From: a virus
Taxonomy: Duplodnaviria > Caudoviricetes
Length of the DNA stretch: 64,000 nucleotides
Virus record (IMG/VR): IMGVR_UViG_3300028797_000108
Span: 75,106-139,105 of that record
Direction: 5' to 3' (one strand)
Shown here piece by piece: positions 7,324 through 61,584 of this stretch. Made by a program: the position numbers and the translations under genes. The notes under the pieces were generated by a model. The model searched no databases and was not told the origin of the DNA. It saw only the letters and a list, made by a program, of their open reading frames with translations. Within the stretch, counting starts at the first letter, position 1. Each line of letters begins with the position of its first letter.

Positions 7324-7793
7324 TGAACGTTCAAGAAAGACTCCGGTTTACGGCTGACTTCATTGACGCTGCTATCCGTGAGACTAATTCAACCTGCTTT
7401 CAGCACAGAATCGTCGATCACGAGCCTGCGTATGAGCTGTTTGTAAAGGACTGTCCTCGTGCCCATAATTTATATGGGTCTGGCAATGACGCCTGCTGGA
7501 TCATATTGTTAAAGCCGCATCAGGAACATTTCAGGTGCTATACAGTAGTTTCTTCTAGAGCGGATGCGATTAAGTTTTTCATCGAGAACGACCTAGAACT
7601 GCAGTATACAAAGATCTGCGACGGTAAAGATGTGATCCCATTCTCGCAATTTAAGAATGGCACGGAAGCCGGTGAATTTGCGGCAGCTAAAATAAACGCA
7701 GTTTTTGATCTTATGGATATTGCTGAAAAACTGTCCAAAAAGGCCAAAAAACTGGCAGAAGCTGAATTTGAGAAAGTTCCGTTCTTAAAATGA
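7323..7793 (+). CDS. Hypothetical early protein, distant paralog of 6769..7323
   Basis: TAATG coupling; shared C-terminal pattern. Confidence 0.75.
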   Translation: MNVQERLRFTADFIDAAIRETNSTCFQHRIVDHEPAYELFVKDCPRAHNLYGSGNDACWIILLKPHQEHFRCYTVVSSRADAIKFFIENDLELQYTKICDGKDVIPFSQFKNGTEAGEFAAAKINAVFDLMDIAEKLSKKAKKLAEAEFEKVPFLK

Positions 7794-15347: not shown

Positions 15348-15431
15348 GGCCTTATGGCGGAACTGGTAGACGCTGGGGACTTAAAATCCCCTGCCAGTAA
15401 TGGCGTCCGGGTTCGAGTCCCGGTGGGGCCA
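15348..15431 (+). tRNA. tRNA-Leu(TAA)
   Basis: Cloverleaf, GGGGA-CTTAAAA-TCCCC, long variable arm. Confidence 0.95.
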
Positions 15432-15440
15432 TACATTTTT

Positions 15441-15571
15441 CGGGCGATAGTTCAAGCGGTCGGGAATACTTTCCGAGTAAAACAGAACGATCTCAGACCT
15501 TCGTGCTAGGTCGCGAGAAAACACGAAGTTAGGACGATAGACTTCCCTGGGTTCAAGTCCTGGGGCGCTCG
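15441..15571 (+). ncRNA. tRNA-like RNA with expanded multi-hairpin centre
   Basis: 5' CGGGCGATAGTTCAAGCGG, 3' T-arm CTGGG-TTCAAGT-CCTGG and acceptor strand, followed by CTA; no anticodon loop. Confidence 0.55.
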
Positions 15572-15582
15572 CTAGCTTTTAT

Positions 15583-15656
15583 ACCCTAGTAGCTCAACTG
15601 GATAGAGCAACGCTCTTCTAAAGCGTGGGTTGCAGGTTCGAGTCCTGCCTAGGGTA
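15583..15656 (+). tRNA. tRNA-Arg(TCT)
   Basis: ACGCT-CTTCTAA-AGCGT. Confidence 0.95.
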
Positions 15657-15663
15657 CTTCTTT

Positions 15664-15735
15664 GAGGGTAAAGCTTTGACGGTGAAGCAATAGACTTTTA
15701 ATCTATGGAACCGGCTTCGAGCTCCGGTACCCTCA
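15664..15735 (+). tRNA. tRNA-Lys(TTT)
   Basis: ATAGA-CTTTTAA-TCTAT; atypical T-arm. Confidence 0.85.
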
Positions 15736-15745
15736 CTAAATTTCT

Positions 15746-15816
15746 TGCCGGTTCGTATAGCGGTAGTATAGGGGACTTTGAATCCTTTGGCGTTGGTCCG
15801 ACTCCAGCACCGGCAG
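15746..15816 (+). tRNA. tRNA-Gln(TTG)
   Basis: GGGGA-CTTTGAA-TCCTT. Confidence 0.9.
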
Positions 15817-15880
15817 CTATAGATCACGAGGTGTGCAAATCCCTCAAGCAGAGTGAACTGCGATAACAAGTTAAACTCAA

Positions 15881-15953
15881 CGGCAGATAGCACAATGGTT
15901 AGTGCAGCGGACTCATAACCCGCCGGTTGAAGGTTCAAATCCTTCTTTGCCGA
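15881..15953 (+). tRNA. tRNA-CAT (Ile2 or elongator Met)
   Basis: GCGGA-CTCATAA-CCCGC. Confidence 0.9.
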
Positions 15954-16014
15954 TAGTTAATAAACTGTTGATAAAACTGTGCATTAACTGTATAATTCAA
16001 ATTTTGAACTATTC

Positions 16015-16040
16015 ATGGCGCCCTAAAAAGCGCCATTTTT
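16015..16040 (+). terminator. Rho-independent terminator
   Basis: ATGGCGC...GCGCCAT-TTTT. Confidence 0.65.
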
Positions 16041-16181
16041 CTATCTCAAAACGATGAAATTTAAGCAGTTATATTACAGTAATTTACAGTAAACCGCGTA
16101 GATTGTGTTGATTTAAGCACTGTTGATATATTGTCAATTTGATCATAAATCACTGTAAATAAAAAATTTACATTTCTACCA

Positions 16182-16221
16182 TTGACGGACTTCCAGATAG
16201 TTGTTATATTTTACTCGTAAA
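16182..16221 (+). promoter_or_regulatory. Early promoter
   Basis: TTGACG-17-TATATT-TTACTCGTAAA. Confidence 0.85.
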
Positions 16222-16246
16222 TTGAAAACAACAAGGAAACTGGAAT

Positions 16247-16438
16247 ATGAACAAACAAGAACTGATCCGCGCGCTGATTGAAACCGCCGAAAAGGAAGGC
16301 TCAAACATTCATTTTGACCATCAATTTGGGTGGGACGGTTTTGTTGATTCCAACGGCGAATTCTGGGCTACCGACGGTCACTCCGTCTCCGAAATTTGTC
16401 GCAGAATTTTCAGTGCCTGTCAGGAAGAATTCATCTAA
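16247..16438 (+). CDS. Small hypothetical protein
   Basis: Behind promoter, AAGGA RBS. Confidence 0.75.
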   Translation: MNKQELIRALIETAEKEGSNIHFDHQFGWDGFVDSNGEFWATDGHSVSEICRRIFSACQEEFI

Positions 16439-16450
16439 GGAGAACCGACA

Positions 16451-17023
16451 ATGATTTTGAAAATCAACTACGCTCGTGCCCTTTACGTTGAATCTGACAC
16501 GATCTATCCGGAAGGTCCCAACAGCGACCACACCTATCAAACGGTGCGCTGCGACGGCCGCATCCGCAAGACCTGTTGGTTCCGCCTCGGTGAAGCATTC
16601 TTGAAGTTCCCCGAACATCGCGCGGTCACCCGCAAGGAAATCGCCGCAGTGATGGAACATACCTTCAGCCCTGACGGCACAAAGGATTGGGGCACGGGTA
16701 TCTGGAGTCCGGATATGTGGACGACCTTCGTTCATGATGGCTTCATCAAGAAGTTTCAGAACGGAAATCGCTTCACCTATATGCTCTCCGATTGGGGTCG
16801 CAGGACTACCATCGCAGCGCAGCGCGACTTCAGCAAGGAATTCACGAAGGCAACGCTTCGCATTCAGGCTATGCCCAAATCGGTTGAAGAAGCCAAGCAG
16901 CTCGTCAAGATCAAGTTTGACAAGCACGAGAATTACCTCGCCCGCAAGGCCGCAGGTTTTCCGAAAAAGAAGGCTCGCCTCGCAAAGGCTGCCCTCCGCG
17001 CTGAAGCAAAAATTTTGAAATAA
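16451..17023 (+). CDS. Hypothetical basic protein
   Basis: AAGGAG RBS, 190 aa. Confidence 0.8.
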   Translation: MILKINYARALYVESDTIYPEGPNSDHTYQTVRCDGRIRKTCWFRLGEAFLKFPEHRAVTRKEIAAVMEHTFSPDGTKDWGTGIWSPDMWTTFVHDGFIKKFQNGNRFTYMLSDWGRRTTIAAQRDFSKEFTKATLRIQAMPKSVEEAKQLVKIKFDKHENYLARKAAGFPKKKARLAKAALRAEAKILK

Positions 17024-17048
17024 AATGAAAAAAATTCAAAATTTACCC

Positions 17049-17088
17049 TTGACAGTTCAAAATTAAATTGTTATATTTTAACTGTTGA
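17049..17088 (+). promoter_or_regulatory. Early promoter with no downstream ORF
   Basis: TTGACA-17-TATATT. Confidence 0.75.
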
Positions 17089-17094
17089 AATTGA

Positions 17095-17372
17095 ACAACT
17101 ACTGCCTCTGGTTCAACGCCGCGGGCCACGCAGGACAACAAAAACCCACGCGGTTCACCTACTGCCCATCCTAGGAAGGGCGACAACTTGGAGATTGAAA
17201 TGAAACTTTTGACGTGTATGTAGAACGGTTTGAGCTTTCATCGTATCAGCTCATCAATGATTGGGGCGATGAAGGCGAGCGGATTTTGATCCCACCGTTG
17301 CGGTAGGCCTAGATGAGCGTTGCTCGAGTTGCAGAAGATCCTCGGAAAAATCTTCACGGGCGTCACCCGGAA
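17095..17372 (+). ncRNA. Candidate structured ncRNA
   Basis: Between two promoters, no substantial ORF, several hairpins. Confidence 0.4.
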
Positions 17373-17391
17373 AAAATTGACAAAAATACCC

Positions 17392-17425
17392 TTGACAGTT
17401 TCAGAAAACTATTTTATATTTGATA
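17392..17425 (+). promoter_or_regulatory. Promoter of main tRNA cluster; late promoter TATAAATA also at 17507-17514
   Basis: TTGACA-17-TATATT. Confidence 0.75.
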
Positions 17426-17532
17426 CTGTCAAAACAAAATCAATCCCGAGCGGATTTGATTGCAGCTTGAAATAGCGGAAACACAAGATTTTGAAAAGTT
17501 GTTGTTTATAAATATGAATAACAACTGAACAT

Positions 17533-17605
17533 GCCTCGGTGGCGCAATTGGTAGCGCAGCGGACTCTTAATCCGTGGGTTGAAGGTTCGAGTCCTTCCCG
17601 GGGCA
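17533..17605 (+). tRNA. tRNA-Lys(CTT)
   Basis: GCGGA-CTCTTAA-TCCGT. Confidence 0.95.
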
Positions 17606-18221
17606 CTACTGGACAAGATCGCGTCAAACTGAAGAGGATTGTTAGTAGTAGCGAAGTACAAGCTATGAACAGGGTTGCTAGTAGGTTTGATGGCAACGCG
17701 TGCAGACCCCACCGATGAGGAGGGGTGAACTGCAGAGGAACCCGACCTGGGGGCGCATCGGGGTGAGTCTTGACAATTTGATGAAAGCGAATCATCGCAA
17801 GTCGTTGGATGTAGTTATAAATGGAAAAACAGGGTCCGCTTCGGCGAGCTCATAATTGTGGGTCCGACTCCCACCGTCCGTAAAACGATTCTGTGAGTAG
17901 TCAAAGGGCTAATCTAAAGCTTGCCTCCAATGCGAAAAAAGCTGAGCGTGCCACCGGCGAGCGATGGTGGGGTTACAGCATAACCACAAAGCTGCACAAT
18001 GCAAGATCGCCTTCGGCAGATAGTTCAAGCGTAGAACATCGGGTTGTCCCCGAAGATTACTGGGTAAAAGCCAAGGCTACCAGAAGTCACCGATTGTTGC
18101 ATATCCTGCTTGGGTCGCGGTTGGTCCCGTGAGACTCGCTCAGGCTTGGTTGAAGGTTCAACAAGTAAAAGAGGACTTAGGCTTGCTTGGCGCCTTAAGC
18201 CTAACCAGCACAAGCATTATT

Positions 18222-18295
18222 GGGGTCATAGCTCAATTTGGTAGAGCACTAGCTTTGCAAGCTAGGGGTTCCGGGTTCGAGTCCCGGTGGCTCCA
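18222..18295 (+). tRNA. tRNA-Ala(TGC)
   Basis: CTAGC-TTTGCAA-GCTAG, G3-U70. Confidence 0.95.
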
Positions 18296-18306
18296 CGAAA
18301 CATTTC

Positions 18307-18668
18307 GGGCTCCCTCCGCCATTTGCAAGTAAGACAAAGAAGGCACGACAAACCGAAAGTAGTTACATTGGTTGCTCTTTGTGGCTGCGATCTTGGTCCT
18401 TCCTAATGAAAGTACCATACAAAGGAGTAGGTAGATCCGTGAAGGAATCGCTCTAAGCTGGAGTAGATCGGATCGGGAATCGCTGAAACGACCGAAGATG
18501 CCTATAACAGAAAGGTTGATGGTGTGCAGCTAGCACTGTCGCTGAAGTAAATGTGCGGCATTGGAAGGATGGAAACGGTGAGGCGGTATACTGATGGGAC
18601 AGGGATAAGCTCCTGACTTTTAGGTATATGTGGTAGCCACTGTGGAGGTTCAAATCCTTCGGTGCCCA
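18307..18668 (+). ncRNA. About 360-nt candidate RNA ending in a tRNA-like T-arm and acceptor strand
   Basis: GGGCTCC (18307) can pair with GGTGCCC (18661); T-arm GGAGG-TTCAAAT-CCTTC; followed by A+CTA like the tRNAs. Confidence 0.4.
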
Positions 18669-18679
18669 CTAATTATTAT

Positions 18680-18753
18680 TGGATTGTAGCTCAGTTTGGT
18701 AGAGCGGTCGGCTGTTAACCGATTGGTCGCAGGTTCGAGTCCTGCCTTTCCAG
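18680..18753 (+). tRNA. tRNA-Asn(GTT)
   Basis: GTCGG-CTGTTAA-CCGAT. Confidence 0.9.
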
Positions 18754-18780
18754 CTAAACGCCGATTAGGCAACATTTTCT

Positions 18781-18856
18781 GTGCTATAGCCGTCCGCAGG
18801 AATCGGACGCCGGCAGTCGCCGGAAATCAGTGGTTCAATTCCACTCGTAGCCACCA
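18781..18856 (+). ncRNA. tRNA-like RNA with 4-nt anticodon loop and encoded CCA
   Basis: CCGGC-AGTC-GCCGG, T-arm AGTGG-TTCAATT-CCACT, ends GCCACCA. Confidence 0.55.
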
Positions 18857-18970
18857 AAGGAAATGGCTTGGTTAAGATAACCTCAACATCAAGTAGCCGA
18901 AAGGTGTGGGACACTTGACGATCAGACAACTCGAGTAATGCTGAACGCTTGAGTCCCAGCGCTTTTGATT

Positions 18971-19043
18971 GCCTGTATAGCTCAGCTGGTAGAGCAGCGG
19001 CTTTGTAACCCGCAGGTCGGGGGTTCGGATCCCTCTGCAGGCG
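18971..19043 (+). tRNA. tRNA-Thr(TGT)
   Basis: GCGGC-TTTGTAA-CCCGC. Confidence 0.9.
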
Positions 19044-19181
19044 CTAATGGTTGAATGTTGGGTATCCTATAGGAATAAACAATAGCCTATAGGTGGACCG
19101 AGCCCCGTTCTGTAATGGGATGGGTGCCCGCATTTCACAATGCCGGTAGTCCGGTGGTGGCGGAACCACCTTAAAAACTTG

Positions 19182-19256
19182 CGGGCTGTAGCTCAGTCTG
19201 GCTAGAGCACTTGATTTGGGATCAAGGGGTCGTGGGTTCAAATCCCGCCAGCCCGA
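19182..19256 (+). tRNA. tRNA-Pro(TGG)
   Basis: CTTGA-TTTGGGA-TCAAG. Confidence 0.95.
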
Positions 19257-19265
19257 TAACATTAT

Positions 19266-19338
19266 TGCGGAGTGGAGCAGTGGTTAGCTCGGCAGCCTCA
19301 TAAGCTGAAGGTCGTGGGTTCAAGTCCCACCTCCGCTA
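19266..19338 (+). tRNA. tRNA-Met(CAT), initiator-like
   Basis: fMet-like body (GCGGAGTGGAGCAG), 1:72 mismatch, CTCATAA loop; lacks the three G-C anticodon-stem pairs. Confidence 0.85.
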
Positions 19339-19350
19339 CTAAAAGTATTT

Positions 19351-19436
19351 GCCAGTGCGCCGACGTTGGAGAGTCGGACCGGACTGTAAATCCGGGGCCC
19401 TCACGGGCTTTGGTGGTTCAAATCCACCCTCTGGCA
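19351..19436 (+). tRNA. tRNA-Tyr(GTA)
   Basis: CCGGA-CTGTAAA-TCCGG, long variable arm. Confidence 0.9.
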
Positions 19437-19450
19437 CGAAAAGAATTTTT

Positions 19451-19522
19451 GGCTCCTTGGTCTAGAGGTTAGGACACCACATTTTCAATGTGAGAACCCG
19501 GGTTCGAGTCCCGGAGGAGCTA
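19451..19522 (+). tRNA. tRNA-Glu(TTC)
   Basis: Glu-type D-arm GTCTAGAGGTTAGGAC; CACA-TTTTCAA-TGTG. Confidence 0.9.
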
Positions 19523-19681
19523 CTAAGCCTCGGATGGCATCGTTTGATTATGGCAAGACGCCCACGCGAAGTGGGAAAGAGCGGTCCGAATCCGCTTGCC
19601 TGAACAGTGAGTACACGGTCTGGGGCTAGGAGCAAAAAGCTGAGAGACGTCGTAGGTGTATTGCTCCGGTACTTTTGAATT

Positions 19682-19752
19682 GGGTTCATAGTTTAATGGA
19701 TGAATACCGGCTTGTCACGCCGGCGGTACGGGATCGTGACCCGTTGGACCCG
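19682..19752 (+). tRNA. tRNA-Asp(GTC)
   Basis: CCGGC-TTGTCAC-GCCGG; atypical T-loop ATCGTGA. Confidence 0.85.
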
Positions 19753-19759
19753 CTAAAAA

Positions 19760-19977
19760 TTGCTGTTTGACAAATCAGGTGAACTGCAGATAGCCTGAGG
19801 CGTTGATTGCGGTTTGAGGTCCGGCGACGGCTGGATGCAAAGGAATAGCCGGAAGCGCGGTTCTAGAGGAAGTTCCTCAGGAGCCGGTGAAGGGAGGCCC
19901 CAAAAGGGCATTAAAACAACGGCGGGAAGGCACCCTCTAAAGAGCTCTGAATATGCAGCCCTCAGAGCAAACAGCAA
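19760..19977 (+). ncRNA. Candidate 218-nt multi-hairpin RNA
   Basis: Perfect 10-bp closing stem TTGCTGTTTG/CAAACAGCAA spanning the whole gap between two tRNAs. Confidence 0.55.
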
Positions 19978-19981
19978 CTAT

Positions 19982-20055
19982 CGGCATGCATAACGATTGG
20001 TTCGTTTGCCACTCTGATAAGGTGGAGATTGAAGGTTCAACTCCTTCCGTGCCGA
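19982..20055 (+). tRNA. tRNA-Ile(GAT)
   Basis: CCACT-CTGATAA-GGTGG. Confidence 0.9.
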
Positions 20056-20058
20056 CTA

Positions 20059-20118
20059 AAGATACTTACAGCAAAGTTATCAACATTCTTTTTTTGGTAG
20101 AATCGCAAAGGTATCTTG
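20059..20118 (+). ncRNA. Scaffold RNA copy A (short hairpin cargo)
   Basis: AAGATACT-TACAGCAA...GGTATCTTG. Confidence 0.6.
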
Positions 20119-20123
20119 ATTAT

Positions 20124-20196
20124 GCCGCGGTAGCCTAGGTGGTCATGGCGCGGGACTGAAAATCCTGAGATGTTGGTCCGATTCCAACCCTCGGCA
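20124..20196 (+). tRNA. tRNA-Phe(GAA)
   Basis: CGGGA-CTGAAAA-TCCTG. Confidence 0.9.
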
Positions 20197-20209
20197 CTAA
20201 AACAATTAT

Positions 20210-20281
20210 AGCGGGGAGAGGATGGTTCCTCCGCCGGTCTCATAAGCCGTGCTTCTGCAGGTTCGAGTCCTGCCGCCGCTA
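20210..20281 (+). tRNA. tRNA-Met(CAT), atypical D-arm
   Basis: CGGT-CTCATAA-GCCG, canonical T-arm. Confidence 0.75.
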
Positions 20282-20285
20282 CTAT

Positions 20286-20369
20286 GGCCTACTGGCGGAA
20301 CTGGTAGACGCGCCTGACTTAGGATCAGGTGCCCGTGAGGGCGTGGGAGTTCGAGTCTCTCGTAGGTCA
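20286..20369 (+). tRNA. tRNA-Leu(TAG)
   Basis: CCTGA-CTTAGGA-TCAGG. Confidence 0.95.
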
Positions 20370-20389
20370 CTAAAACACAAGGAGTTATT

Positions 20390-20596
20390 ATGACTGAACA
20401 AGAAGCAAAAAGAGCAAAAGAAATTGAAGCAATGCTGAATTGGAATTTGCAGCGATCCCAGGCCTTGGGTGAATTCCCTTTGCCCGTCACTTGTGGTATC
20501 ACTCAGATCTTTAACTGCGTTCAGTCTGAAAGGGCGGCTGCTTGGAAGCGCAAGAATGATATTGCGAACGGGCGAGTCCCTGATTCGGTTCCGTAG
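20390..20596 (+). CDS. Small hypothetical protein inside the tRNA cluster
   Basis: AAGGAG RBS, 68 aa; stop codon lies inside tRNA-Arg. Confidence 0.65.
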   Translation: MTEQEAKRAKEIEAMLNWNLQRSQALGEFPLPVTCGITQIFNCVQSERAAAWKRKNDIANGRVPDSVP

Positions 20597-20662
20597 CTCA
20601 GTCGGATTTAGAGCGCCACGCTACGAACGTGGAGGTCCCAGGTTCGAGTCCTGGCGGAACTA
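20587..20662 (+). tRNA. tRNA-Arg(ACG)
   Basis: CCACG-CTACGAA-CGTGG. Confidence 0.95.
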
Positions 20663-20719
20663 CTAAAGCGGTTTGGGTGGAGGTACGTCGCCGTTATAAA
20701 TATCTCAAATCGCTTTTAT

Positions 20720-20803
20720 GCTTACATGAATCCGAGCGGCAAAGGACGCAGTCTGCAAAACTGCGGGCGAAAGCCTTCGCAGGTTCGAGTCCTGCTGTAA
20801 GCT
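20720..20803 (+). tRNA. tRNA-Cys(GCA) with long variable arm
   Basis: GCAGT-CTGCAAA-ACTGC, U73, variable hairpin GGC-GAAA-GCC. Confidence 0.85.
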
Positions 20804-20809
20804 CTAATA

Positions 20810-20935
20810 AAGATAGAGACAGCAAAATTAAATGCTATCCCAAGGCTGAAACGAGGGGTCCGAATCCCCTCATGGAGGTTGGTCTTCCATTCGTCTAGTG
20901 GTCTAGGACTCAGCCAAAGCAAAAAATCTATCTTG
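20810..20935 (+). ncRNA. Scaffold RNA copy B carrying a circularly permuted tRNA (CCC anticodon-like)
   Basis: AAGATAGA/TCTATCTT stem; T-arm, sealed acceptor stem, D-arm in that order. Confidence 0.75.
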
Positions 20936-20939
20936 TCTT

Positions 20940-21023
20940 GGAGGGTTAGCCTAACGGTAAGGCAGCGGTCTTGAAAACCGCCGCGGGGAAACTCGCTTGT
21001 AGGTTCAAATCCTGCACCCTCCG
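20940..21023 (+). tRNA. tRNA-Ser(TGA)
   Basis: GCGGT-CTTGAAA-ACCGC, long variable arm. Confidence 0.95.
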
Positions 21024-21037
21024 CTAAAACATTTTAA

Positions 21038-21109
21038 GTCCCATTGGTGTAGTGGTAGCACGTCTCCTTGCCATGGAGAAGGTCGCCGGTCCGAATCCGG
21101 CATGGGGCT
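21038..21109 (+). tRNA. tRNA-Gly(GCC)
   Basis: TCTCC-TTGCCAT-GGAGA. Confidence 0.9.
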
Positions 21110-21113
21110 CTAT

Positions 21114-21240
21114 AGATACGCACAGCAATGTTAAAGCATGGTCTGATAAACCCCGTGTTGCAGGTTCGAGTCCTGTCGGGTCGCTGAAAGGTGACCTGTA
21201 GCTCAATCGGTAGAGCAGGAAAAGCAAAAAACGTATCTTG
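21114..21240 (+). ncRNA. Scaffold RNA copy C carrying a circularly permuted tRNA (GAT anticodon-like)
   Basis: AGATACG/CGTATCT stem; anticodon loop, T-arm, GAAA-capped acceptor stem, D-arm. Confidence 0.75.
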
Positions 21241-21245
21241 TATAA

Positions 21246-21316
21246 GTCCTATTGGTGTAGTGGTAACATTTCTGCCTTCCAAGCAGGTGTGGCGAGTTCG
21301 AGTCTCGCATAGGGCT
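21246..21316 (+). tRNA. tRNA-Gly(TCC)
   Basis: TCTGC-CTTCCAA-GCAGG. Confidence 0.9.
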
Positions 21317-21319
21317 CTA

Positions 21320-21442
21320 AAGGTGCTCTCAGCTAAATTTTCATAGGAAAATTCTAGAGTAGTATAATTGGTTATTACACCCTCCGATAAAAGAGGGAGA
21401 TCCTGGTTCGAGTCCAGGCGCCAGACCCCGAAAGGCATCTTG
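21320..21442 (+). ncRNA. Scaffold RNA copy D enclosing a degenerate tRNA in normal order
   Basis: AAGGTGCT/GGCATCTT stem, CAGCTAA; inner D-arm, CCCTC/GAGGG arm with 8-nt loop, T-arm. Confidence 0.65.
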
Positions 21443-21450
21443 ATCTTACC

Positions 21451-21522
21451 CCCGTGGTAGTGTAATGGTTAGCACACGAGCTTGTGGCGCTCGTAGTTCG
21501 GATTCGAGTTCCGGCCTTGGGA
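21451..21522 (+). tRNA. tRNA-His(GTG)
   Basis: CGAGC-TTGTGGC-GCTCG; no encoded G-1, A73. Confidence 0.85.
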
Positions 21523-21525
21523 TAT

Positions 21526-21599
21526 ACCTCCGTGGCGCAGTGGTTTAGCGCGGCTGCCCTACAAGCAGCGGGTCGTAGGTTCAACTCCTACCGGGGGTA
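21526..21599 (+). tRNA. tRNA-Val(TAC)
   Basis: GCTGC-CCTACAA-GCAGC (C33). Confidence 0.9.
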
Positions 21600-21603
21600 C
21601 TAT

Positions 21604-21675
21604 TGGGGCGTGGTGTAATTGGTAACACGCATGACTCTGACTCATGAATTCTTGGTTCAAGTCCAGGCGCCCCAA
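21604..21675 (+). tRNA. tRNA-Gln(CTG)
   Basis: CATGA-CTCTGAC-TCATG. Confidence 0.95.
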
Positions 21676-21755
21676 CTATGGTGACCCAAAGCCAAAACAA
21701 ATTGGGTCGTTTCTAGTGAGTAGCCTTGTAGCTAGATCTGTAATTAAAGGCCCTT

Positions 21756-21828
21756 AGGGATATAGTTCAATTGGTAGAACGGCGGACTCCAAACCCGCGT
21801 GTTAGAGGTTCAAATCCTTTTGTCCCTG
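21756..21828 (+). tRNA. tRNA-Trp(CCA)
   Basis: GCGGA-CTCCAAA-CCCGC. Confidence 0.9.
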
Positions 21829-21832
21829 TTAT

Positions 21833-21916
21833 GGCCGAGTGGCGGAATTGGTAGACGCGGCGGACTCAAAATCCGCTGACCGCGAGGTCGTGAGAGTTCA
21901 AGTCTCTCCTTGGCCA
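21833..21916 (+). tRNA. tRNA-Leu(CAA)
   Basis: GCGGA-CTCAAAA-TCCGC. Confidence 0.95.
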
Positions 21917-21920
21917 CTAT

Positions 21921-22038
21921 AGATACCAACAGCAAAAATGCGTCTTGCTCCTCCTGGGGTTATAGCTCAATTGGTAGAGCACCGCCGACATACTGGCGGG
22001 GGTTGCGGGTTCGAGTCCCGATATGCAATGGTATCTTG
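21921..22038 (+). ncRNA. Scaffold RNA copy E carrying a tRNA-Ala-like body permuted at the T-arm/acceptor junction
   Basis: AGATACCA/TGGTATCT stem; TTGCTCC precedes GGGGTTATAGCTCAATTGGTAGAGC. Confidence 0.7.
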
Positions 22039-22043
22039 ACTTT

Positions 22044-22129
22044 GGAGGAATACACTAATTGGTTAAGTGGCCACCCTGCTAAGGTGGTGTCCCGAAAGGG
22101 GCGTGAAGGTTCAAGTCCTTCTTCCTCCG
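22044..22129 (+). tRNA. tRNA-Ser(GCT)
   Basis: CCACC-CTGCTAA-GGTGG, long variable arm. Confidence 0.95.
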
Positions 22130-22159
22130 TATTGACATTTTTTGACAATTTCTTGTTAG

Positions 22160-22189
22160 CGCCCGAATTGATGAAATTCGGGCGTTTTT
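22160..22189 (+). terminator. Terminator of the tRNA cluster
   Basis: CGCCCGAATT...AATTCGGGCG-TTTTT. Confidence 0.85.
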
Positions 22190-22240
22190 GTTATGTAAAC
22201 TTTATTTTACATATTTTTTCATATTTTGCGGATTATTTAG

Positions 22241-22280
22241 TTGACAGGTGGCGTGGAAATTGTTATATTTTACTCGTAAA
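22241..22280 (+). promoter_or_regulatory. Early promoter
   Basis: TTGACA-17-TATATT-TTACTCGTAAA. Confidence 0.85.
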
Positions 22281-22304
22281 CAAAACAACTGAAGGATTTG
22301 AACT

Positions 22305-22781
22305 ATGAGTATTGATTCCAAACGCCGCTCCGATATCGCCTCCACCCCGTGGGAAAAGCTTGAATATGGCCGTGACCTTACCGATTGTCTTCGCAATGAC
22401 TACCCCGAAAATTATTGTTCTGTTGAAGACCGAAATGAATGGAACGGTTTTGTTTGCGGAAAAGATAAGATGCCGAAGCGCGTCCTGATCCGTGACTCCT
22501 TCATGCGCCGTATGCCTGACGGTCACTGGGTTGAACAGCGTAAGGATTGGGAAGCCCTTGAACTCCTTGATTTTGAAATGAAGGACGCCTACATGATGGG
22601 CAAAACTCCTGAAGGAGAAGAAATTTGGGTGAACCGCACCGTTCACGTCGCAGCCCGTGACTGGGACGAAGCAACGAGAATTTACAACTGGCACAAGGAT
22701 CGCTGGATGAGCTGCGGCTTGATTTCTGGCTGGATGAATTTCTGGACTGACCGTGCCATCAACGCTGAAAAGAAGGCTTAA
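22305..22781 (+). CDS. Hypothetical early protein
   Basis: Behind promoter, AAGGA RBS. Confidence 0.8.
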   Translation: MSIDSKRRSDIASTPWEKLEYGRDLTDCLRNDYPENYCSVEDRNEWNGFVCGKDKMPKRVLIRDSFMRRMPDGHWVEQRKDWEALELLDFEMKDAYMMGKTPEGEEIWVNRTVHVAARDWDEATRIYNWHKDRWMSCGLISGWMNFWTDRAINAEKKA

Positions 22782-45649: not shown

Positions 45650-45970
45650 ATGTTAAGAAATTATAACAGATTATATTTGAACAAGCAAACCGATCATGAG
45701 GCAAGCAAAGTCATTTATGATTCTCACGGCGTCACTGGTCTAGAATGGAACCAATACATCGGACGAATCATCATTAATGATTTCATCAAGCAGCTTGATG
45801 ACCATGTTGGTACTGAATTTGCGCCTTACATGGGCGTGCTGCCTTTCATTGAGTATGGAATGTTTCAGTCAGCGATAGGCGTCATACAGCAGATTGAAAT
45901 CCCTGGTTTGGAACGCCAGAAAGCTTGGCTGCTTGAAGCGTTGAAGGAAGGTGAGGACCGTTATGAGTAA
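45650..45970 (+). CDS. Hypothetical protein (possible fibre chaperone)
   Basis: 106 aa between fibre-like genes. Confidence 0.75.
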   Translation: MLRNYNRLYLNKQTDHEASKVIYDSHGVTGLEWNQYIGRIIINDFIKQLDDHVGTEFAPYMGVLPFIEYGMFQSAIGVIQQIEIPGLERQKAWLLEALKEGEDRYE

Positions 45971-47588
45971 GTTAAATAAAATTATTACCAATCTTCCGGT
46001 TTCATTGACAACGGAAGAAAATGAAGCGCTTAGCCAAACCTTCTCAGCCGTAACTGCTGCTGGAGGTGGTGGCGGCGGACAAAGCATTCGTTATGCTGGT
46101 GACGGCACTACTATTGTGTTGAACACAACGCAGAATACTTTCAGCTTGCATCAAGACTACATTAACGCAGTTCAGGGAATACCTACGAAAGTTACTGATC
46201 TTACTGACTCAGCGAATTATGAACTTACATCACATGCATCATCAACATATTTGACAAAGGCAAGCGCCGATAATGATTATGGCGCTAAGGCTGATGTTAC
46301 TGCGCTTAAGGAAGCATCGGCCGGTTGGGATAAAGGTGCTGCACTTACTGCATATAGTGCGAATGGTAAATGGCTTATTGCTGATGATATTACTGGAAAA
46401 CAAGATACGCTTACATTTGGATATAATGGTTCTAAGATTAGTGCCATCAATGAAACAGCCATTGACCAACCTGATGTCAGCAACTTCTTAACAAAAGAAA
46501 TTGCAGACACTTATTATCAGCCGACTGGAAATTATCAGCCCGCCGGTGCTTATGCAACAAGCAGCACTATTGCTGGTGACAGCGTGTATGGATTGACTAC
46601 CGCTGGATGGCAAATTGTTGAAGGCGGCGGAGGCGGAGGCGGCGGAATGATTGCCGTCACGCATGATGATACACTAAGTGGCGACGGAACAGACGCAGCA
46701 CACAAGCTAGGTGTTGTTTGGTCAACATTAAGTGCAGGCACAGTAAATTCTGCATTAAGCGCAGGAAGCGCAGCGAAGGCAGCATTATTGGGTACATCAA
46801 GCTTGGCTGATATTACAGCTGCCATCAATTTGAAAGCTGATGCAACTGATATTTCTGATATGTTAACCAAGACGCTTGCTGCGTCATTATATCAGGCAAA
46901 AACTGATATGACTGCATATCAAACAACGGCTGGTATGACAGCATATCAGACAACAGCTAGCATGTCAGATTACTGGAAGAAAACTGAAACAAGTAGTGAT
47001 GCACAGATTTCGGCAGCTTTAGCTGCTAAGCAAGAAACATTGACATTCAATTTTGCTGATGCTAGCACTACACAAATATCAGGCATAAACGGATATGACT
47101 TTGTTATTCCTTCTTTGCCGCACATCACAGTTATTCCTGGTACATATATTTCTGCCTCTGAAGGCACTGGTAGCGATGCTGGTAAATGGACAGTTGGAGT
47201 AAATGCTACTGCTAAAAACTACATAGACGCAATACCAAATAAAGTTACCAAGCCTGATGTTGCTGATAAGAACTTTATTTACACAACGTCTGGAAGCACT
47301 TCGGGATGGACTGATGCTGATGCGATTTATGCAACAACGGCAGCGGTTGATGCTAAGCTAAGTAAGGCTGACATTAGCATTACAGGCGCTGATAACGTTT
47401 TGAGAATAAAAGAAGCCGCAAATACATCGGCTACATTCTCAGCTGTTTCATGGTATGCTAATACCGCGGTCAATGCATTTAAGGCACAGAAGATATTTGT
47501 CGTTCGTAATGACGATGATATTATGGCTCATGCCCAATTTGCGAATAACCAAGGTTGCCTGTTCTTTGTTGTGTCAGGTCACTCGTAA
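45963..47588 (+). CDS. Fibre-like virion protein
   Basis: Ala/Thr/Ser-rich, poly-Gly hinges, KQDTL, HDDTLSGDG, YQPTGNYQPAGAY. Confidence 0.7.
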   Translation: MSKLNKIITNLPVSLTTEENEALSQTFSAVTAAGGGGGGQSIRYAGDGTTIVLNTTQNTFSLHQDYINAVQGIPTKVTDLTDSANYELTSHASSTYLTKASADNDYGAKADVTALKEASAGWDKGAALTAYSANGKWLIADDITGKQDTLTFGYNGSKISAINETAIDQPDVSNFLTKEIADTYYQPTGNYQPAGAYATSSTIAGDSVYGLTTAGWQIVEGGGGGGGGMIAVTHDDTLSGDGTDAAHKLGVVWSTLSAGTVNSALSAGSAAKAALLGTSSLADITAAINLKADATDISDMLTKTLAASLYQAKTDMTAYQTTAGMTAYQTTASMSDYWKKTETSSDAQISAALAAKQETLTFNFADASTTQISGINGYDFVIPSLPHITVIPGTYISASEGTGSDAGKWTVGVNATAKNYIDAIPNKVTKPDVADKNFIYTTSGSTSGWTDADAIYATTAAVDAKLSKADISITGADNVLRIKEAANTSATFSAVSWYANTAVNAFKAQKIFVVRNDDDIMAHAQFANNQGCLFFVVSGHS

Positions 47589-47606
47589 ATAATCTGAGGA
47601 CTATTT

Positions 47607-49247
47607 ATGGCTTGGAAAATTGATGGAAAAATTGGGTTGCTTGCATCTAATTATGAAGGCAACCCACAGCAAGATACTTACCGTATTGCATATAAAGATG
47701 CAAGCGGTAATGATTATGAAATTGAAAAGGTGTATTTTCTATCGGCTGATGACATTGCATATTTTGAGACGTTGACACAACAGGAACAACTTGCAGAACT
47801 TGCTACAGGTAAATATAATGTATGGCATCGTTATTGGGATCCTATGTATTACTTTGCACACTGTTATACTTATCAGAGCAATTCTTTACCTTCATTTTTA
47901 TTCTCACCTGAAAAATCTGGTGAACTTAAATCATTTACCGTTTATACCAAATCAGCCTGTAATGCAAAGTCACACTTGATTTTGGCAAGGTATGATGGCG
48001 ATGATATTGCTACATTAGATTATTCAAAGTTTTATGTCATTGCGAATAATAACGACTTCACAATTCGTTCATCAACGCTTTGCGATTTCAAAACACAATA
48101 TAATGAAGATGTTTATGAAACGGTCATAGAATACACAGGCTCATCGCCAATGCTGCTGAGCAAAAGCACGCATTACATGTTTGTAGCTAGGATGCGTCAT
48201 GATAATGATAATAATTATGATCTTGTGTATGACGCTGACTTGTCCGCAACAGAACCTGTTGCCCGTTCGTTGCAGTATGATAACTATAACATTCATGATA
48301 ATAAAAATCAGTACTGGCGTGATGCAGTAAATGCAACTGTTGAAAACGGATTTGTAAAATTCGGCATATCGGCTGATGATCTACAGTGGGCTAATGAAAA
48401 CGAACCGTTTTCAGCGTGTTATGTTGAATGGGATCAGTATGATGATTCCACAAAAACATTATCATGGCATACATTGTGTAATTATCCGGTAGGTTCAAAT
48501 AATCCTATTGATGTTAGCGATGATGTTGAATGGTATAGACTTAACAATGTCAATCCCAGAATTTCAGCTACATCAATTAAGACATCAGCATATACTGCAT
48601 TTGCTGATGATGGCATGCGCTTTGCATCAATACTTGCTTGTAATGAACACAAGTCACCTACTGCACGCGGCGGATTCCGTTATCCTTATAATGAACCTGA
48701 TGACCAAACATATTCATCATGTATAGATACATATCAGTACTATAGGATATCTGGTGAACAGTATGCATGCTTGCTGTATACGCCTACAACTGACTGTCGT
48801 CTTGTTTCTTTCTCATTCTTCAATAACTCGACTTGCGCATATAATGTTGACAACCGCGCAATAATTGAACTTAATGATGCAAAGACCCAAGGAACGGCAT
48901 ACGGCGCATTAACAGAAGACCATCGCATTGAATATAAGAAATCACGAGTTATAACGATGACTGGAACAACTGAAGTAAGTAGCCAAGTTGAAATGATTTA
49001 TAAGCATTACATGGTTCCTTCGCAAACAATAAATTTGTCAGCAGGAAAAACTTATGCATTTGCTTTGTATAATGATTTCAATGATTCTAAACATGGCATA
49101 GCATATTTTAGAAAAAATGCTTCAGCAGACGAAAGACACTATAACATCATACGAAGTAATCCTTATTACCTTGGCGGATGGACAGCTACTGACTATAATG
49201 CATACGCAATTATTACAACGGCAGCAGTTGAAGACGCACAAGCATAA
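47607..49247 (+). CDS. Hypothetical virion protein (possible receptor-binding, beta-rich)
   Basis: 546 aa, Tyr/Asn/Asp-rich, internally duplicated domain pattern (F.P...L.SF...). Confidence 0.7.
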   Translation: MAWKIDGKIGLLASNYEGNPQQDTYRIAYKDASGNDYEIEKVYFLSADDIAYFETLTQQEQLAELATGKYNVWHRYWDPMYYFAHCYTYQSNSLPSFLFSPEKSGELKSFTVYTKSACNAKSHLILARYDGDDIATLDYSKFYVIANNNDFTIRSSTLCDFKTQYNEDVYETVIEYTGSSPMLLSKSTHYMFVARMRHDNDNNYDLVYDADLSATEPVARSLQYDNYNIHDNKNQYWRDAVNATVENGFVKFGISADDLQWANENEPFSACYVEWDQYDDSTKTLSWHTLCNYPVGSNNPIDVSDDVEWYRLNNVNPRISATSIKTSAYTAFADDGMRFASILACNEHKSPTARGGFRYPYNEPDDQTYSSCIDTYQYYRISGEQYACLLYTPTTDCRLVSFSFFNNSTCAYNVDNRAIIELNDAKTQGTAYGALTEDHRIEYKKSRVITMTGTTEVSSQVEMIYKHYMVPSQTINLSAGKTYAFALYNDFNDSKHGIAYFRKNASADERHYNIIRSNPYYLGGWTATDYNAYAIITTAAVEDAQA

Positions 49248-49294
49248 CTAGATTATCATTTTCATGGCGGCGCTCACCGGCACCGCCTTTATAG

Positions 49295-49302
49295 TATAAA
49301 TA
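49295..49302 (+). promoter_or_regulatory. T4-type late promoter
   Basis: TATAAATA following a hairpin at about 49266-49288. Confidence 0.7.
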
Positions 49303-49318
49303 CAAAAAAGGGTAAGAT

Positions 49319-49768
49319 ATGCTAGTAGAAACATTTAATAAGATCGTTGATAACATCGCAGCACTGAATGAAAAAGAAGAAATTCATGTTTCTCCTCCTG
49401 ATGAACAGCCGGTTGAACATGAGGAATCAACTGAATCCGCTGATCCGAGAACAGCACTTCGTGACTCTATCAAGTCTCAGGCAGAAATTGCTGAAAGCGT
49501 GATTAAGTCTATCGGAGAAGCATACGCTGACAAATGCAACCACATGACCATTATGGGCAACATGGAAGACCAGATTAAGAACTGGGAACAAACAATGAAG
49601 GGTGCCTGTCATCAGGTTGTGCAGATGGTGAACTCAAAGAAGTTCACTGTTGATAAGCGCGTATGTAACCCACATGCATTTAATATGATTAAGGATTGTG
49701 CTTCTCGTGATACTGACGCATTGAAGACTGCGGCTGCGGTTATCGTATTTTACAATTCTTTGGGATAA
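49319..49768 (+). CDS. Hypothetical late protein
   Basis: 149 aa behind late promoter. Confidence 0.8.
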   Translation: MLVETFNKIVDNIAALNEKEEIHVSPPDEQPVEHEESTESADPRTALRDSIKSQAEIAESVIKSIGEAYADKCNHMTIMGNMEDQIKNWEQTMKGACHQVVQMVNSKKFTVDKRVCNPHAFNMIKDCASRDTDALKTAAAVIVFYNSLG

Positions 49769-49778
49769 GAGGTAAGGA

Positions 49779-51470
49779 ATGGCGCTTGTTGAGCAATTAC
49801 AACCTATTGCTGGTTGGAGCCATGATACAGTTGCTGACGGCGACTGGATGCAGTCTAAGACCATCAAGCCGATTGATGCAAACATCAAGATGCTTGCAGC
49901 GGCCTGTGATGACAACGGATTAGACCAGATCCCAGCAATTTCGGCTGCGGCATTTTCAGGCGCTTCCGCATGGCAGCAAGTAAGCGCCTATGCCGATAAA
50001 TTTGATGACATGCAGGCAAGCGCTGCATCAGGCGCTTCTGCTTGGGACAAAATAAAGAACTATAACATGACGGCACTTTCTGCTAGTGCGATGTCAGGCG
50101 CATTGGCATGGAATAAGATTGGTGACCCTAGCATTGACCTTAAGGAAATACGCGGCTCAGCACAGAGCGGTTTTGCAGCATATCAAAAATTAGAAGGCTA
50201 TGATCTTGCAGAAATTTCACAGTCCGCTGCTCTGGGTAAATCTGCGTATGATTACATCAGTCCGCGTGTTGGAGATTTGAATAGAGCACTTACAACATAC
50301 AATGCTGCCTACAGTGCAGGATTGTTGGGTGTATCTGCATGGAACACAGTTACATCAAATGAAGGTAAATGGAATAATGCTTACAGCGCGCTAACATCAA
50401 GAAGTGCGTCATGGAATGAAGGACGCATAACTGTTTGGATATACAGCGGCCTATGGAATGATGCGTCAAAATGGGTAACCGCAAATTCTGCTAAGTGGAA
50501 CATTGACATTGATGTTTATAACAATAACTATCAAAAGTGGAATAATGCAACTGGTATTGTTGAAGCTGATTCGGCTAGATGGAATAGTGCAGCAAGCGTC
50601 ATTGAAGGCGGCTCCGCAAAATGGAACAATGCGGTTGACACATTACGAAATTACTCTGCCGGATGGACGGCAGCTAAGAGCCAGCTTGATGCATCTGCTA
50701 AGTACTGGAACAGCGCTTATGATGTGATGAAGAATAACTCCGCAACATGGACGGCTATGTATGATGTTGTGAACCGCTCAGCAACAAACTGGAGCAACGC
50801 GGTCAACCAATTCAATACAAGCTCTTCAATTTGGACAACGACTGTCAATAACTACAACTCGAACACAGCTAAGTGGAACAGCGCAACGGCAACACTCAGC
50901 GCTCGTTCAGGTGTATGGCTTGACACGGTTGGTACTGTTGCAGCAGGTAAGTCAAAATGGAATTCTGACTATAACACAGTTTGTGCAAACTCAGCCAAAT
51001 GGAATTCTTGTGCTACAACGGTAAGTAATAACAGAGCTAAGTGGGACGCTGCTGGCACATATTTGGTTGACAAATATGTCAGTGCTTTGTCATCCATCTA
51101 TCTCACAATTACAGCTAAGTCTGGATATTGGGATTCAGCATACTCAGCATATGTATCAGCATTTGATAAGTTTGGAAACACGCTGACGATCGTTCAAAAT
51201 AATGTCGGCGCATGGAATGATACCGCTGGCTGGTATAGATCTAACTCAGCAACTACGACTGCATTTACATACGCAGTCACTGCTGGTTCAGCAGCATGGA
51301 CAAATGCTGCGTCAAAGGTTGTCGCAAGTGCGAAGTATTGGGACCAAGCATACTCAGCATTGACTGGAAGCAGAGGAACTTATATTCAGGGCTGGGACAT
51401 TACGGCCGCGGTCTATACAGGGTCTTATCCTTCTTCACCAAGTGCTAAAACGGTTTATTTCGTAGGTTAA
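49779..51470 (+). CDS. SAxWN-repeat coiled-coil fibre-like protein
   Basis: Many (N)S(A/G)xWN units with mostly 14-residue spacing. Confidence 0.75.
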   Translation: MALVEQLQPIAGWSHDTVADGDWMQSKTIKPIDANIKMLAAACDDNGLDQIPAISAAAFSGASAWQQVSAYADKFDDMQASAASGASAWDKIKNYNMTALSASAMSGALAWNKIGDPSIDLKEIRGSAQSGFAAYQKLEGYDLAEISQSAALGKSAYDYISPRVGDLNRALTTYNAAYSAGLLGVSAWNTVTSNEGKWNNAYSALTSRSASWNEGRITVWIYSGLWNDASKWVTANSAKWNIDIDVYNNNYQKWNNATGIVEADSARWNSAASVIEGGSAKWNNAVDTLRNYSAGWTAAKSQLDASAKYWNSAYDVMKNNSATWTAMYDVVNRSATNWSNAVNQFNTSSSIWTTTVNNYNSNTAKWNSATATLSARSGVWLDTVGTVAAGKSKWNSDYNTVCANSAKWNSCATTVSNNRAKWDAAGTYLVDKYVSALSSIYLTITAKSGYWDSAYSAYVSAFDKFGNTLTIVQNNVGAWNDTAGWYRSNSATTTAFTYAVTAGSAAWTNAASKVVASAKYWDQAYSALTGSRGTYIQGWDITAAVYTGSYPSSPSAKTVYFVG

Positions 51471-51471
51471 T

Positions 51472-61406: not shown

Positions 61407-61584
61407 CTTACTGACCGGAGCGAGACTCAACCCAATGAGCTATCGGCAGGTGTAAGTTGCGACCTAGCAGAGGTGCGGCTAGGGCTGTTCGTATAGTACC
61501 AAAGGATGAACTGTTCACGACAGTTCAGTATGCCGTCACAGGCGTATGGAATGTAGTCCGAGTACAGGGTGACCGCTCGGTAAG
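61407..61584 (+). ncRNA. Candidate structured ncRNA
   Basis: Behind TTGTTATATTTT promoter motif; closing stem CTTACTGA/TCGGTAAG; internal hairpins; no credible ORF. Confidence 0.5.

Follow-up and report, generated by a model that had tools for sequence, protein, structure and literature searches.

The final 64 kb of the 139-kb phage record IMGVR_UViG_3300028797_000108 (IMG/VR), a stretch of 64,000 nucleotides (nt) that we refer to as the window, holds an array of transfer RNA (tRNA) genes, and within that array lies a 118-base RNA gene (positions 21921–22038) in which a constant frame, the handle, encloses a permuted tRNA-Ala body, the cargo. We propose, at a probability of roughly 0.6, that this element specifies a stable, non-decoding small RNA of ~120 nt resembling the Y RNAs, whose handle would be bound by a protein of the DUF2828 family and whose cargo is a tRNA look-alike. 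The proposal is carried by the anatomy of the element, its descent from the phage's own tRNA-Ala, the compensatory conservation of its helices in related phages, its membership in a family of handle RNAs, the linkage of that family to DUF2828 genes, and the Ro60-like fold predicted for the DUF2828 protein.

A tRNA-Ala body in permuted order

The handle consists of an 8-base-pair (bp) closing stem and the motif ACAGCAA, and the cargo follows in the order 3′ acceptor strand, UCCU loop, 5′ acceptor strand, D arm, anticodon-like arm, T arm (Table 1). All the features that a preliminary description of the locus had listed are present where it placed them, except that it had the RNA return to the handle right after the T arm; a 7-nt linker (22022–22028) intervenes there. 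In the acceptor hairpin six of the seven positions pair, among them the wobbles G3-U70 and U5-G68, and U6 is mismatched with U67. By our own arithmetic the probability of the hairpin pairing alone arising by chance is ~0.08, weak evidence by itself, and it is the orthologues that decide. The Rfam tRNA model matches 21961–22023 with its positions 6–65 only (30.7 bits against a cut-off of 29; E value 0.02 window-wide and 4e-5 for the element alone), which indicates a tRNA body that has no acceptor stem where one would normally lie. ARAGORN called neither a tRNA nor a transfer-messenger RNA (tmRNA) in the element. The attributes of a decoding tRNA are missing: instead of ending free, the 3′ strand comes first and runs through a 4-nt loop into the 5′ strand, and the anticodon loop is not the usual one of 7 nt with U33.

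Put back in tRNA order (positions 1–65, then 66–72) and compared with the 28 tRNAs of the window, the cargo is closest to tRNA-Ala(UGC) at 18222–18296, the tRNA against which the preliminary description had suggested aligning it, with identity at 59 of 77 positions; no other tRNA exceeds 52. Only five differences from tRNA-Ala lie outside the anticodon arm. Both acceptor strands agree with those of tRNA-Ala at six of seven positions, including G3-U70 and U5-G68, the D arms differ by a single-base deletion, and the anticodon-like arm is the sole part that does not resemble its counterpart. A BLAST search of cultured phages with the element returned only ordinary tRNA genes, mostly for tRNA-Ala, aligned over the D-to-T part. 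The overall similarity and the matching acceptor strands show that the cargo was derived from tRNA-Ala: it is tRNA-Ala-like and permuted, as had been proposed, and is opened between the T stem (position 65) and the 3′ acceptor strand (position 66), and its anticodon arm has been replaced.

A pattern scan of metagenome contigs recovered positional orthologues in three contigs, L118, L129 (identical to L118) and L122, and all of them sit between tRNA-Leu(caa) and tRNA-Ser(gct). We read the pair changes by hand from the orthologue sequences and their alignment. In the acceptor hairpin, pair 4:69 changes from G-C in the window to A-U in the orthologues, pair 5:68 from U-G to A-U, and the U6/U67 mismatch becomes an A-U pair. 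Pair 30:40 of the anticodon stem is C-G in the window and G-U in L118 and L122, and pair 51:63 of the T stem is G-C in the window and A-U in both, whereas position 49:65 is unpaired in all three alike. No helix is disrupted, and four pairs (4:69, 5:68, 30:40 and 51:63) are changed on both sides. The TTGCTCC/GGGGTTA pairing, whose conservation had been set beforehand as the test on which the preliminary description could fail, is thus conserved, with compensatory changes in L118/L129 and L122. The anticodon loop behaves differently: it has 8 nt in the window and a different, 7-nt sequence in L118 and L122, with no conserved anticodon or U33, which argues that the element is no decoder.

The orthologues also bear on the acceptor end. 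Their hairpin loops read ACCAUU (L118/L129) and GCCAUU (L122), that is, a discriminator and CCA followed by UU before G1. Among the tRNA genes, apparent CCA encoding is limited to a coincidental case among the 28 of the window and is found in none of the 34 of L129. We note that no window tRNA gene (15348–22130) encodes a genuine CCA, the one case being coincidental, and that in most of them the discriminator is followed by C, U and A (…N73-C-U-A…), a recurring start of the 3′ trailer. The preliminary description had suggested, as one possibility, repeated capture of circularised tRNAs. The encoded N-C-C-A at the start of the orthologue loops would be compatible with an origin at the RNA level, because CCA is absent from the tRNA genes of these phages, but a CCA mimic favored by selection would explain it just as well.

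Two apparent homologues come from more distant phages. One, L008:5475–5578, lies in the interval from tRNA-Trp to tRNA-Ser(gct) and has the same acceptor pattern, retaining G1-C72, G2-C71, G3-U70, U5-G68 and the U6/U67 mismatch; its loop is ACCA plus 5 nt, and it has a D arm and an anticodon-like arm and no T arm. The other, L015:3659–3764, has a sealed hairpin that is likewise of the Ala type, with a loop beginning with GCCA and the pair A3-U70, a D arm and an anticodon-like arm, and again no T arm. The tRNA elbow is therefore not always kept. As to the G3-U70 equivalent emphasized earlier, the window and L118 share it together with G1-C72 and G2-C71, and L129 likewise has it, but it gives way to A3-U70 in L122 and L015:3659. 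Because of this replacement, binding of alanyl-tRNA synthetase (AlaRS), for which a test had been suggested, is doubtful as a conserved role, judged from the sequences.

A family of handle RNAs linked to DUF2828

The handle of the element, a closing stem of 7–8 bp with ACAGCAA after its 5′ strand and …CUUG after its 3′ strand, occurs five times in the window, each time in the same orientation as the tRNAs (Table 1). An exact pattern for it found 35 viral loci where roughly 3–5 were expected by chance, and a relaxed scan of all the loci that we fetched yielded 108 distinct handle RNAs. Stem sequences vary across the 108 members while the 3′ strand stays complementary, and some of the stem G-U pairs work only on the tRNA strand. 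The Rfam scan of the window and the element found no family that covers the handle, and we found no published description or Rfam family for these RNAs. In a 194-kb viral contig (L030:2831–3148, minus strand), at least five handle-only units of 64 nt are arranged head to tail in a tandem array.

The cargo of family members is arranged in several ways. The T arm comes last, after the D and anticodon arms, in 31 of the 108, as it does in the element; it comes first in 29, in the order of the bacterial Y RNA YrlA (T arm, acceptor hairpin, D arm); and no T arm was detected in the remaining 48. Inspected by eye, the T-last group comprises three kinds: about a dozen members with an acceptor hairpin before the D arm, on varied tRNA-like bodies; members with a whole cloverleaf inside the handle, such as the window copy at 21321–21442; and members with no acceptor stem, such as L065 and L093. 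The topology of the element recurs in L023, L006, L043, L126, L080, L090, L115, L005 and L009, so its opening point defines a recurrent class and is no one-off. It differs from that of the siblings at 20811–20935 and 21114–21240, which have the YrlA order, and several opening points exist across the family, both of which the preliminary description had recognized. Its suggestion that these RNAs were selected as elbow mimics does not hold as a general role, given the two homologues without a T arm and the 48 members in which none was detected. Among the T-first members, CCA occupies positions 74–76 in 6 of 27 sealed acceptor hairpins and CCU in three more, where 0.4 is expected for any one trinucleotide; in a looser enrichment test over all possible hairpins CCA ranked 8th of 64.

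The call of a "tRNA-???" with a four-base anticodon by ARAGORN at 21353–21428 lies inside a variant handle with an AGGUGCU stem and CAGCUA, and the handle RNA concerned (21321–21442) has apparent homologues at L035:6420–6549 and L008:4496–4607. In the related arrays L035 (7430–7560) and L008 (5589–5723), the slot just before tRNA-Ser(gct) is taken by a handle RNA whose cargo has the YrlA order and belongs to another tRNA type, which indicates that the cargo in this slot has been exchanged or reshuffled among related phages.

Which protein might bind the handle? The TROVE domain of Ro60 (PF05731) gave no Pfam match in the record of our phage, in nine other handle-bearing phage records (seven of them at least 90% complete) or in five handle-bearing bacterial genomes, and a Ro60/TROVE protein is accordingly rejected as the partner at the sensitivity of Pfam. 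Bacterial handle RNAs came from a scan of bacterial genomes in which about 34 of the 49 matches were expected by chance and from which we kept only those with tRNA-like cargo or a neighboring DUF2828 gene; these come from gut bacteria, namely Oribacterium, Lachnospiraceae, a Eubacterium and a Treponema genome. The isolate Oribacterium parvum ACB1 has an open reading frame that matches DUF2828 in Pfam, and its genome carries two handle RNAs immediately 5′ of this frame. These RNAs (L147:7475–7545 and 7587–7720; L183:1182–1426) are one short and one with D-, anticodon- and T-like cargo, and we note that the arrangement of two handles and DUF2828 is conserved in several Oribacterium assemblies (L130, L156, L165, L166 and L171).

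DUF2828 (PF11443) is present in all seven handle-bearing phage genomes that are at least 90% complete, in 9 of 11 handle-bearing phage records overall, and in all five handle-bearing bacteria. It is present in only 1 of 10 complete control phages with tRNA genes (Fisher p = 4e-4; 1 of 12 when all records are counted) and in none of 14 reference-genome controls, and the single positive control itself bears a stem-and-ACAGCAA element (L085:3160–3224). Of 13 DUF2828 loci, 9 have a handle RNA no more than ~500 nt away and on the strand of the gene; in phage G007 (L195) one with the topology of the element lies 29 nt after the DUF2828 gene. A phage DUF2828 protein additionally carries DUF7788, and some homologues show a von Willebrand factor A (vWA) signature. 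At the sequence level the protein matched no solved structure, and our search of the literature returned no functional description of DUF2828. An AlphaFold2 model (predicted local distance difference test 91.7, predicted template-modeling [TM] score 0.90) was used to query Foldseek. The 12 best matches were all Ro60/TROVE proteins, among them Ro60 of a Thermus phage, aligned over the full length with E values of 8e-9 to 3e-5 and TM scores of up to 0.57. DUF2828 is thus predicted from its model to have a Ro60-like fold, with a TROVE-like ring and a vWA domain.

Proposed function and competing explanations

How the RNA is expressed and processed, what binds it and what its cargo does we infer as follows. 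The RNA would be transcribed along with the tRNA array, its 5′ end would be freed by 3′ processing of tRNA-Leu, and its 3′ end would be freed by RNase P cleavage at the 5′ end of tRNA-Ser. The constant part, the handle, would be bound by the DUF2828 protein; by analogy with Ro60 and the Y RNAs, it is most likely the binding site of this Ro60-fold protein. The variable part would present a nearly complete tRNA-Ala shape in which the acceptor is sealed, C74-C75 is kept and the anticodon loop is unable to decode, and it may act as a protein-recruiting or decoy module resembling tRNA, as has been proposed for YrlA and Yrn1.

Several observations weigh against this proposal. The cloverleaf-type fold of the window copy (−35.2 kcal/mol) is less stable by 8 kcal/mol than an alternative (−43.2 kcal/mol) in which part of the 3′ acceptor strand pairs with the 3′ strand of the D stem. 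The energies of the window copy thus favor the alternative, and the case for the structure rests on comparison rather than on energy; the minimum-energy fold of L118 holds all five helices. Our pattern searches required an AGATAC stem and CAGCAA, which biases the family statistics and the frequency of CAGCAA toward that subtype. Bacterial Y RNAs have near their 5′ end the Ro60-binding motif GNCGAAN0-1G (PMC4201824), to which ACAGCAA is no match; one relative, L002:5967–6079, has CAGCGAAG, which is close to it. The sub-threshold YrlA match at the sibling 21127–21243 lies in the tRNA-like part, with the handle aligned poorly. Neither the Pfam model nor our own alignment found a DUF2828 gene in the 139 kb of this phage, a record that is ~37% complete (CheckV). 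Finally, binding of the handle by DUF2828, although the most likely arrangement, is argued from co-occurrence, adjacency and analogy of fold.

Alternatively, the element may need no dedicated partner protein and be a free-standing, nuclease-resistant tRNA decoy that soaks up a host factor that cleaves or binds tRNA, the handle being merely an end-protecting clamp and a processing signal. The sealed ends and the non-canonical anticodon loop would suit such a decoy, the surrounding tRNA array would excise it automatically, and the available part of the genome shows no DUF2828 gene. We regard this as unlikely, however, as a clamp alone needs no ACAGCAA and stem-end sequence conserved among phages and bacteria that differ greatly, some handle RNAs have no tRNA part at all (20060–20118), and handle RNAs are tightly linked with DUF2828 genes. 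Slightly less likely still is that the element is the precursor of a chargeable split tRNA-like RNA, in which RNase P cuts 5′ of G1 and trimming bares N-C-C-A; the product would be a nicked tRNA-Ala body, clamped by the handle and chargeable by AlaRS, and would be compatible with the binding of DUF2828 that we propose. At 7 bp, the hairpin is as long as the one that allows RNase P to cut YrlA of M. smegmatis, an RNA to which CCA is then added in vivo (PMC4201824). The orthologue loops that begin with ACCA or GCCA and continue with UU before G1, the excess of CCA at positions 74–76 of T-first hairpins (6 of 27 against 0.4 expected, with CCU in three more), the lack of encoded CCA in the real tRNA genes of these phages, and the retention of G3-U70 in the window, L118/L129 and L008:5475 point the same way. 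On the other side, the UCCU loop of the window copy is tight (4 nt), offers RNase P little single strand and carries U, not A, at both 73 and 76; A3-U70 in L122 and L015:3659 removes the main AlaRS determinant; and in many members of the family the loop contains no CCA. The UCCU loop and the loss of G3-U70 in L122 thus speak against a split RNA as a conserved role. A combination of the split RNA with the particle that we propose, in which the hairpin is opened and a Ro60-like DUF2828 particle carries the handle-clamped, two-piece, AlaRS-chargeable tRNA-Ala body, is improbable. If it were true, a ring protein would hold an aminoacylated tRNA mimic, which might be used during infection as, for instance, a mini-tmRNA-like device or a non-ribosomal alanine donor.

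Two other explanations deserve very little credence. All the parts of a tRNA are present in permuted order and the cargo is closely related to tRNA-Ala, as would be the case for a true permuted tRNA gene in the manner of Cyanidioschyzon merolae, from which the handle is removed and the ends ligated into a decoding tRNA-Ala. The phage already has a normal tRNA-Ala, however, and neither an anticodon nor U33 is conserved between the 8-nt loop of the window and the different 7 nt of the orthologues; moreover, the existence of handles that carry nothing, or something other than a tRNA, shows that the handle is no intron-like spacer, and apparent homologues have no T arm. Conservation likewise disfavors the idea that the element is a tRNA pseudogene in decay, or an inverted-repeat element of the DNA with no RNA function. 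ARAGORN made no call, to be sure, and in the DNA the closing stem forms an inverted repeat, but orthologues in diverged phages keep all the helices through compensatory changes, family members have handle-stem G-U pairs that can form only on the strand of the tRNAs, and all copies are co-oriented with the tRNAs.

Ro60 and its Y RNAs form a conserved and poorly understood RNA-surveillance particle, and some bacterial Y RNAs mimic tRNA. The family to which the element belongs seems to be another branch of this design, and a far more diverse one, with a different protein family, a different handle and interchangeable cargo; a single phage displays pieces of several tRNAs in different topologies. 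Nowhere is a nearly whole tRNA on a handle seen more clearly than in the element, with the donor gene still recognizable in the same genome. If the ribonucleoprotein is real, DUF2828 proteins would gain a function, there would be a tractable route to the purpose that Y RNAs serve by mimicking tRNA (such as repair of tRNA, quality control or counter-defense), and the element would mark a class of phage genes that both tRNA finders and Rfam have missed.

Genomic setting and comparison with known systems

The array in which the element lies (15348–22130) comprises 28 ordinary tRNA genes and one odd call (ARAGORN), and the element occupies the 125-nt gap that separates tRNA-Leu(caa) from tRNA-Ser(gct).

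Table 1. The element, its parts, its siblings and flanking features, in window coordinates
Feature	Position	Strand	Remarks
Handle, 5′ strand of closing stem (AGAUACCA)	21921–21928	+	Pairs with 22029–22036 (8 bp); in every predicted fold
Handle motif ACAGCAA, unpaired, adjoining the 5′ strand	21929–21935	+	Shared by the orthologues and all five window copies, one of which has CAGCUA
5′ linker, 9 nt, not conserved	21936–21944	+	Differs in L118 and L122
3′ acceptor strand TTGCTCC (tRNA positions 66–72), upstream of the rest	21945–21951	+	Pairs with 21956–21962; covaries in orthologues
Loop UCCU (TCCT) sealing the acceptor end	21952–21955	+	Position 73, C74, C75, then U
5′ acceptor strand GGGGTTA (positions 1–7)	21956–21962	+	Matches tRNA-Ala at 6 of 7
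U8 A9	21963–21964	+	
Canonical D arm (GCUC, 8-nt loop, GAGC)	21965–21980; A26 to 21981	+	Rfam tRNA alignment
Anticodon-like arm CCGCC/GGCGG (5 bp)	21982–21999	+	Non-canonical 8-nt loop, 21987–21994
Variable region GGGUU, 5 nt	22000–22004	+	
T arm (UUCGAGU loop)	22005–22021	+	4 pairs and a G/A mismatch at 49:65; Rfam tRNA alignment
3′ linker, 7 nt, T arm to handle	22022–22028	+	Length and sequence vary in orthologues
Handle, 3′ strand of closing stem and UG tail (…AUCUUG)	22029–22038	+	
Sibling handle RNA without tRNA cargo	20060–20118	+	
Sibling handle RNA, YrlA order	20811–20935	+	T arm, acceptor hairpin, D arm
Sibling handle RNA, YrlA order	21114–21240	+	Sub-threshold Rfam YrlA match at 21127–21243 (42.8 bits; cut-off 69)
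Sibling handle RNA around a whole cloverleaf	21321–21442	+	8-nt anticodon loop; ARAGORN "tRNA-???"
tRNA-Ala(UGC), true tRNA of the phage	18222–18296	+	Closest relative of the cargo
Flanking tRNA-Leu(caa)	21833–21917	+	ARAGORN; same neighbor in L118, L122 and L129
Flanking tRNA-Ser(gct)	22043–22130	+	ARAGORN; same neighbor in L118, L129 and L122
Terminator-like hairpin	22158–22186		3′ of the array and of tRNA-Ser(gct)

Promoter-like sites lie upstream of the tRNA array, that at 17392–17420 among them. We note that a repeated block (TTGACA, 17 nt, TATATT, with similar flanks) precedes each transcription unit in and around the array, with copies at 16190–16225, 17049–17077, 17392–17420 and 22241–22269; the copy near 16190–16225 was spotted by eye only, beyond the range that was scanned. 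A 132-amino-acid open reading frame with a TTG start (21910–22308, plus strand), called mechanically, spans the element, tRNA-Ser and the terminator and is very unlikely to be a gene. Among the neighboring and the large open reading frames of the window, Pfam and PHROGs matched only an SbcC-like nuclease, an ATPase and an HNH endonuclease. Four consecutive open reading frames of 545–571 amino acids (45951–53187, plus strand) had no PHROG match and no significant Pfam match. A search of the 139-kb record for RtcB found none, and searches for close relatives of the phage through flanking proteins and through structural proteins returned none. At 61501–61603 (plus strand) the window has a full-length match to the cow-rumen-2 RNA of Rfam, a motif of unknown function (74.1 bits; cut-off 66), which fits an origin of the phage in the rumen.

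Known RNAs share one or another trait with the element. Two-piece permuted tmRNA precursors have an Ala-type acceptor stem with G3-U70 and, in the primary transcript, a loop that joins the 3′ CCA end to the 5′ end. The element differs from them in that it has no mRNA-like domain or pseudoknots, has an anticodon arm, is only 118 nt long and drew no tmRNA call from ARAGORN. The permuted tRNA genes of Cyanidioschyzon merolae have the 3′ part upstream of the 5′ part with a linker between, and they mature into decoding tRNAs by way of a bulge-helix-bulge splicing site, whereas the element has a non-canonical anticodon loop and is flanked by a conserved handle that is shared with non-tRNA cargo. Like rnaC and rnaD of phage T4, the element is a small non-decoding RNA with tRNA-like parts inside a phage tRNA cluster. 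The stem-and-ACAGCAA handle is absent from both T4 RNAs, which rules them out as relatives. The dictyostelid Class I RNAs (RF01414) have a short stem that joins the ends, a conserved 11-nt motif by its 5′ strand and a variable remainder (Kjellin et al. 2021, PMC7919456), and the invariant positions of that motif, T3, C6, C9, A10 and A11, fit the …CAGCAA of the handle. Unlike the element, they are eukaryotic, measure 42–65 nt and have no tRNA-like cargo, and the RF01414 model matched neither the element nor the cargo-less copy even at an E value of 10.

Precedents are given by the Ro60 partners YrlA and Yrn1, whose tRNA-like domains have two different arm orders (Chen et al. 2014, PMC4201824). 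YrlA is bound by Ro60/Rsr of bacteria and of mycobacteriophages. The handle RNAs resemble YrlA (RF02553) in being modular, with a closing stem, a conserved motif near the 5′ end and a tRNA-like domain with a closed acceptor hairpin, and in being found in phages and encoded beside the gene for a protein of predicted Ro60 fold. They differ in that the linked protein family is DUF2828 and not TROVE. The element itself departs from the order of YrlA (T arm, acceptor hairpin, D arm) by having its acceptor hairpin first, followed by the D arm, a full anticodon-like arm and the T arm, and its match to RF02553 is limited to 18 nt of the D arm (11.5 bits; gathering score 69). Yrn1 has a D arm, then an anticodon-like arm with a loop of unusual size, then a T arm (PMC4201824). 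It has no acceptor hairpin, its D arm is partial, and it binds the TROVE-family protein Rsr through a different stem sequence (PMC4201824). Still, in Yrn1 of Deinococcus radiodurans, as in the element, a D-like arm, an anticodon-like arm whose loop departs from the usual size (6 nt in Yrn1, 8 nt in the element) and a T arm are set between the strands of a stem that in Yrn1 binds protein and in the element may do so.

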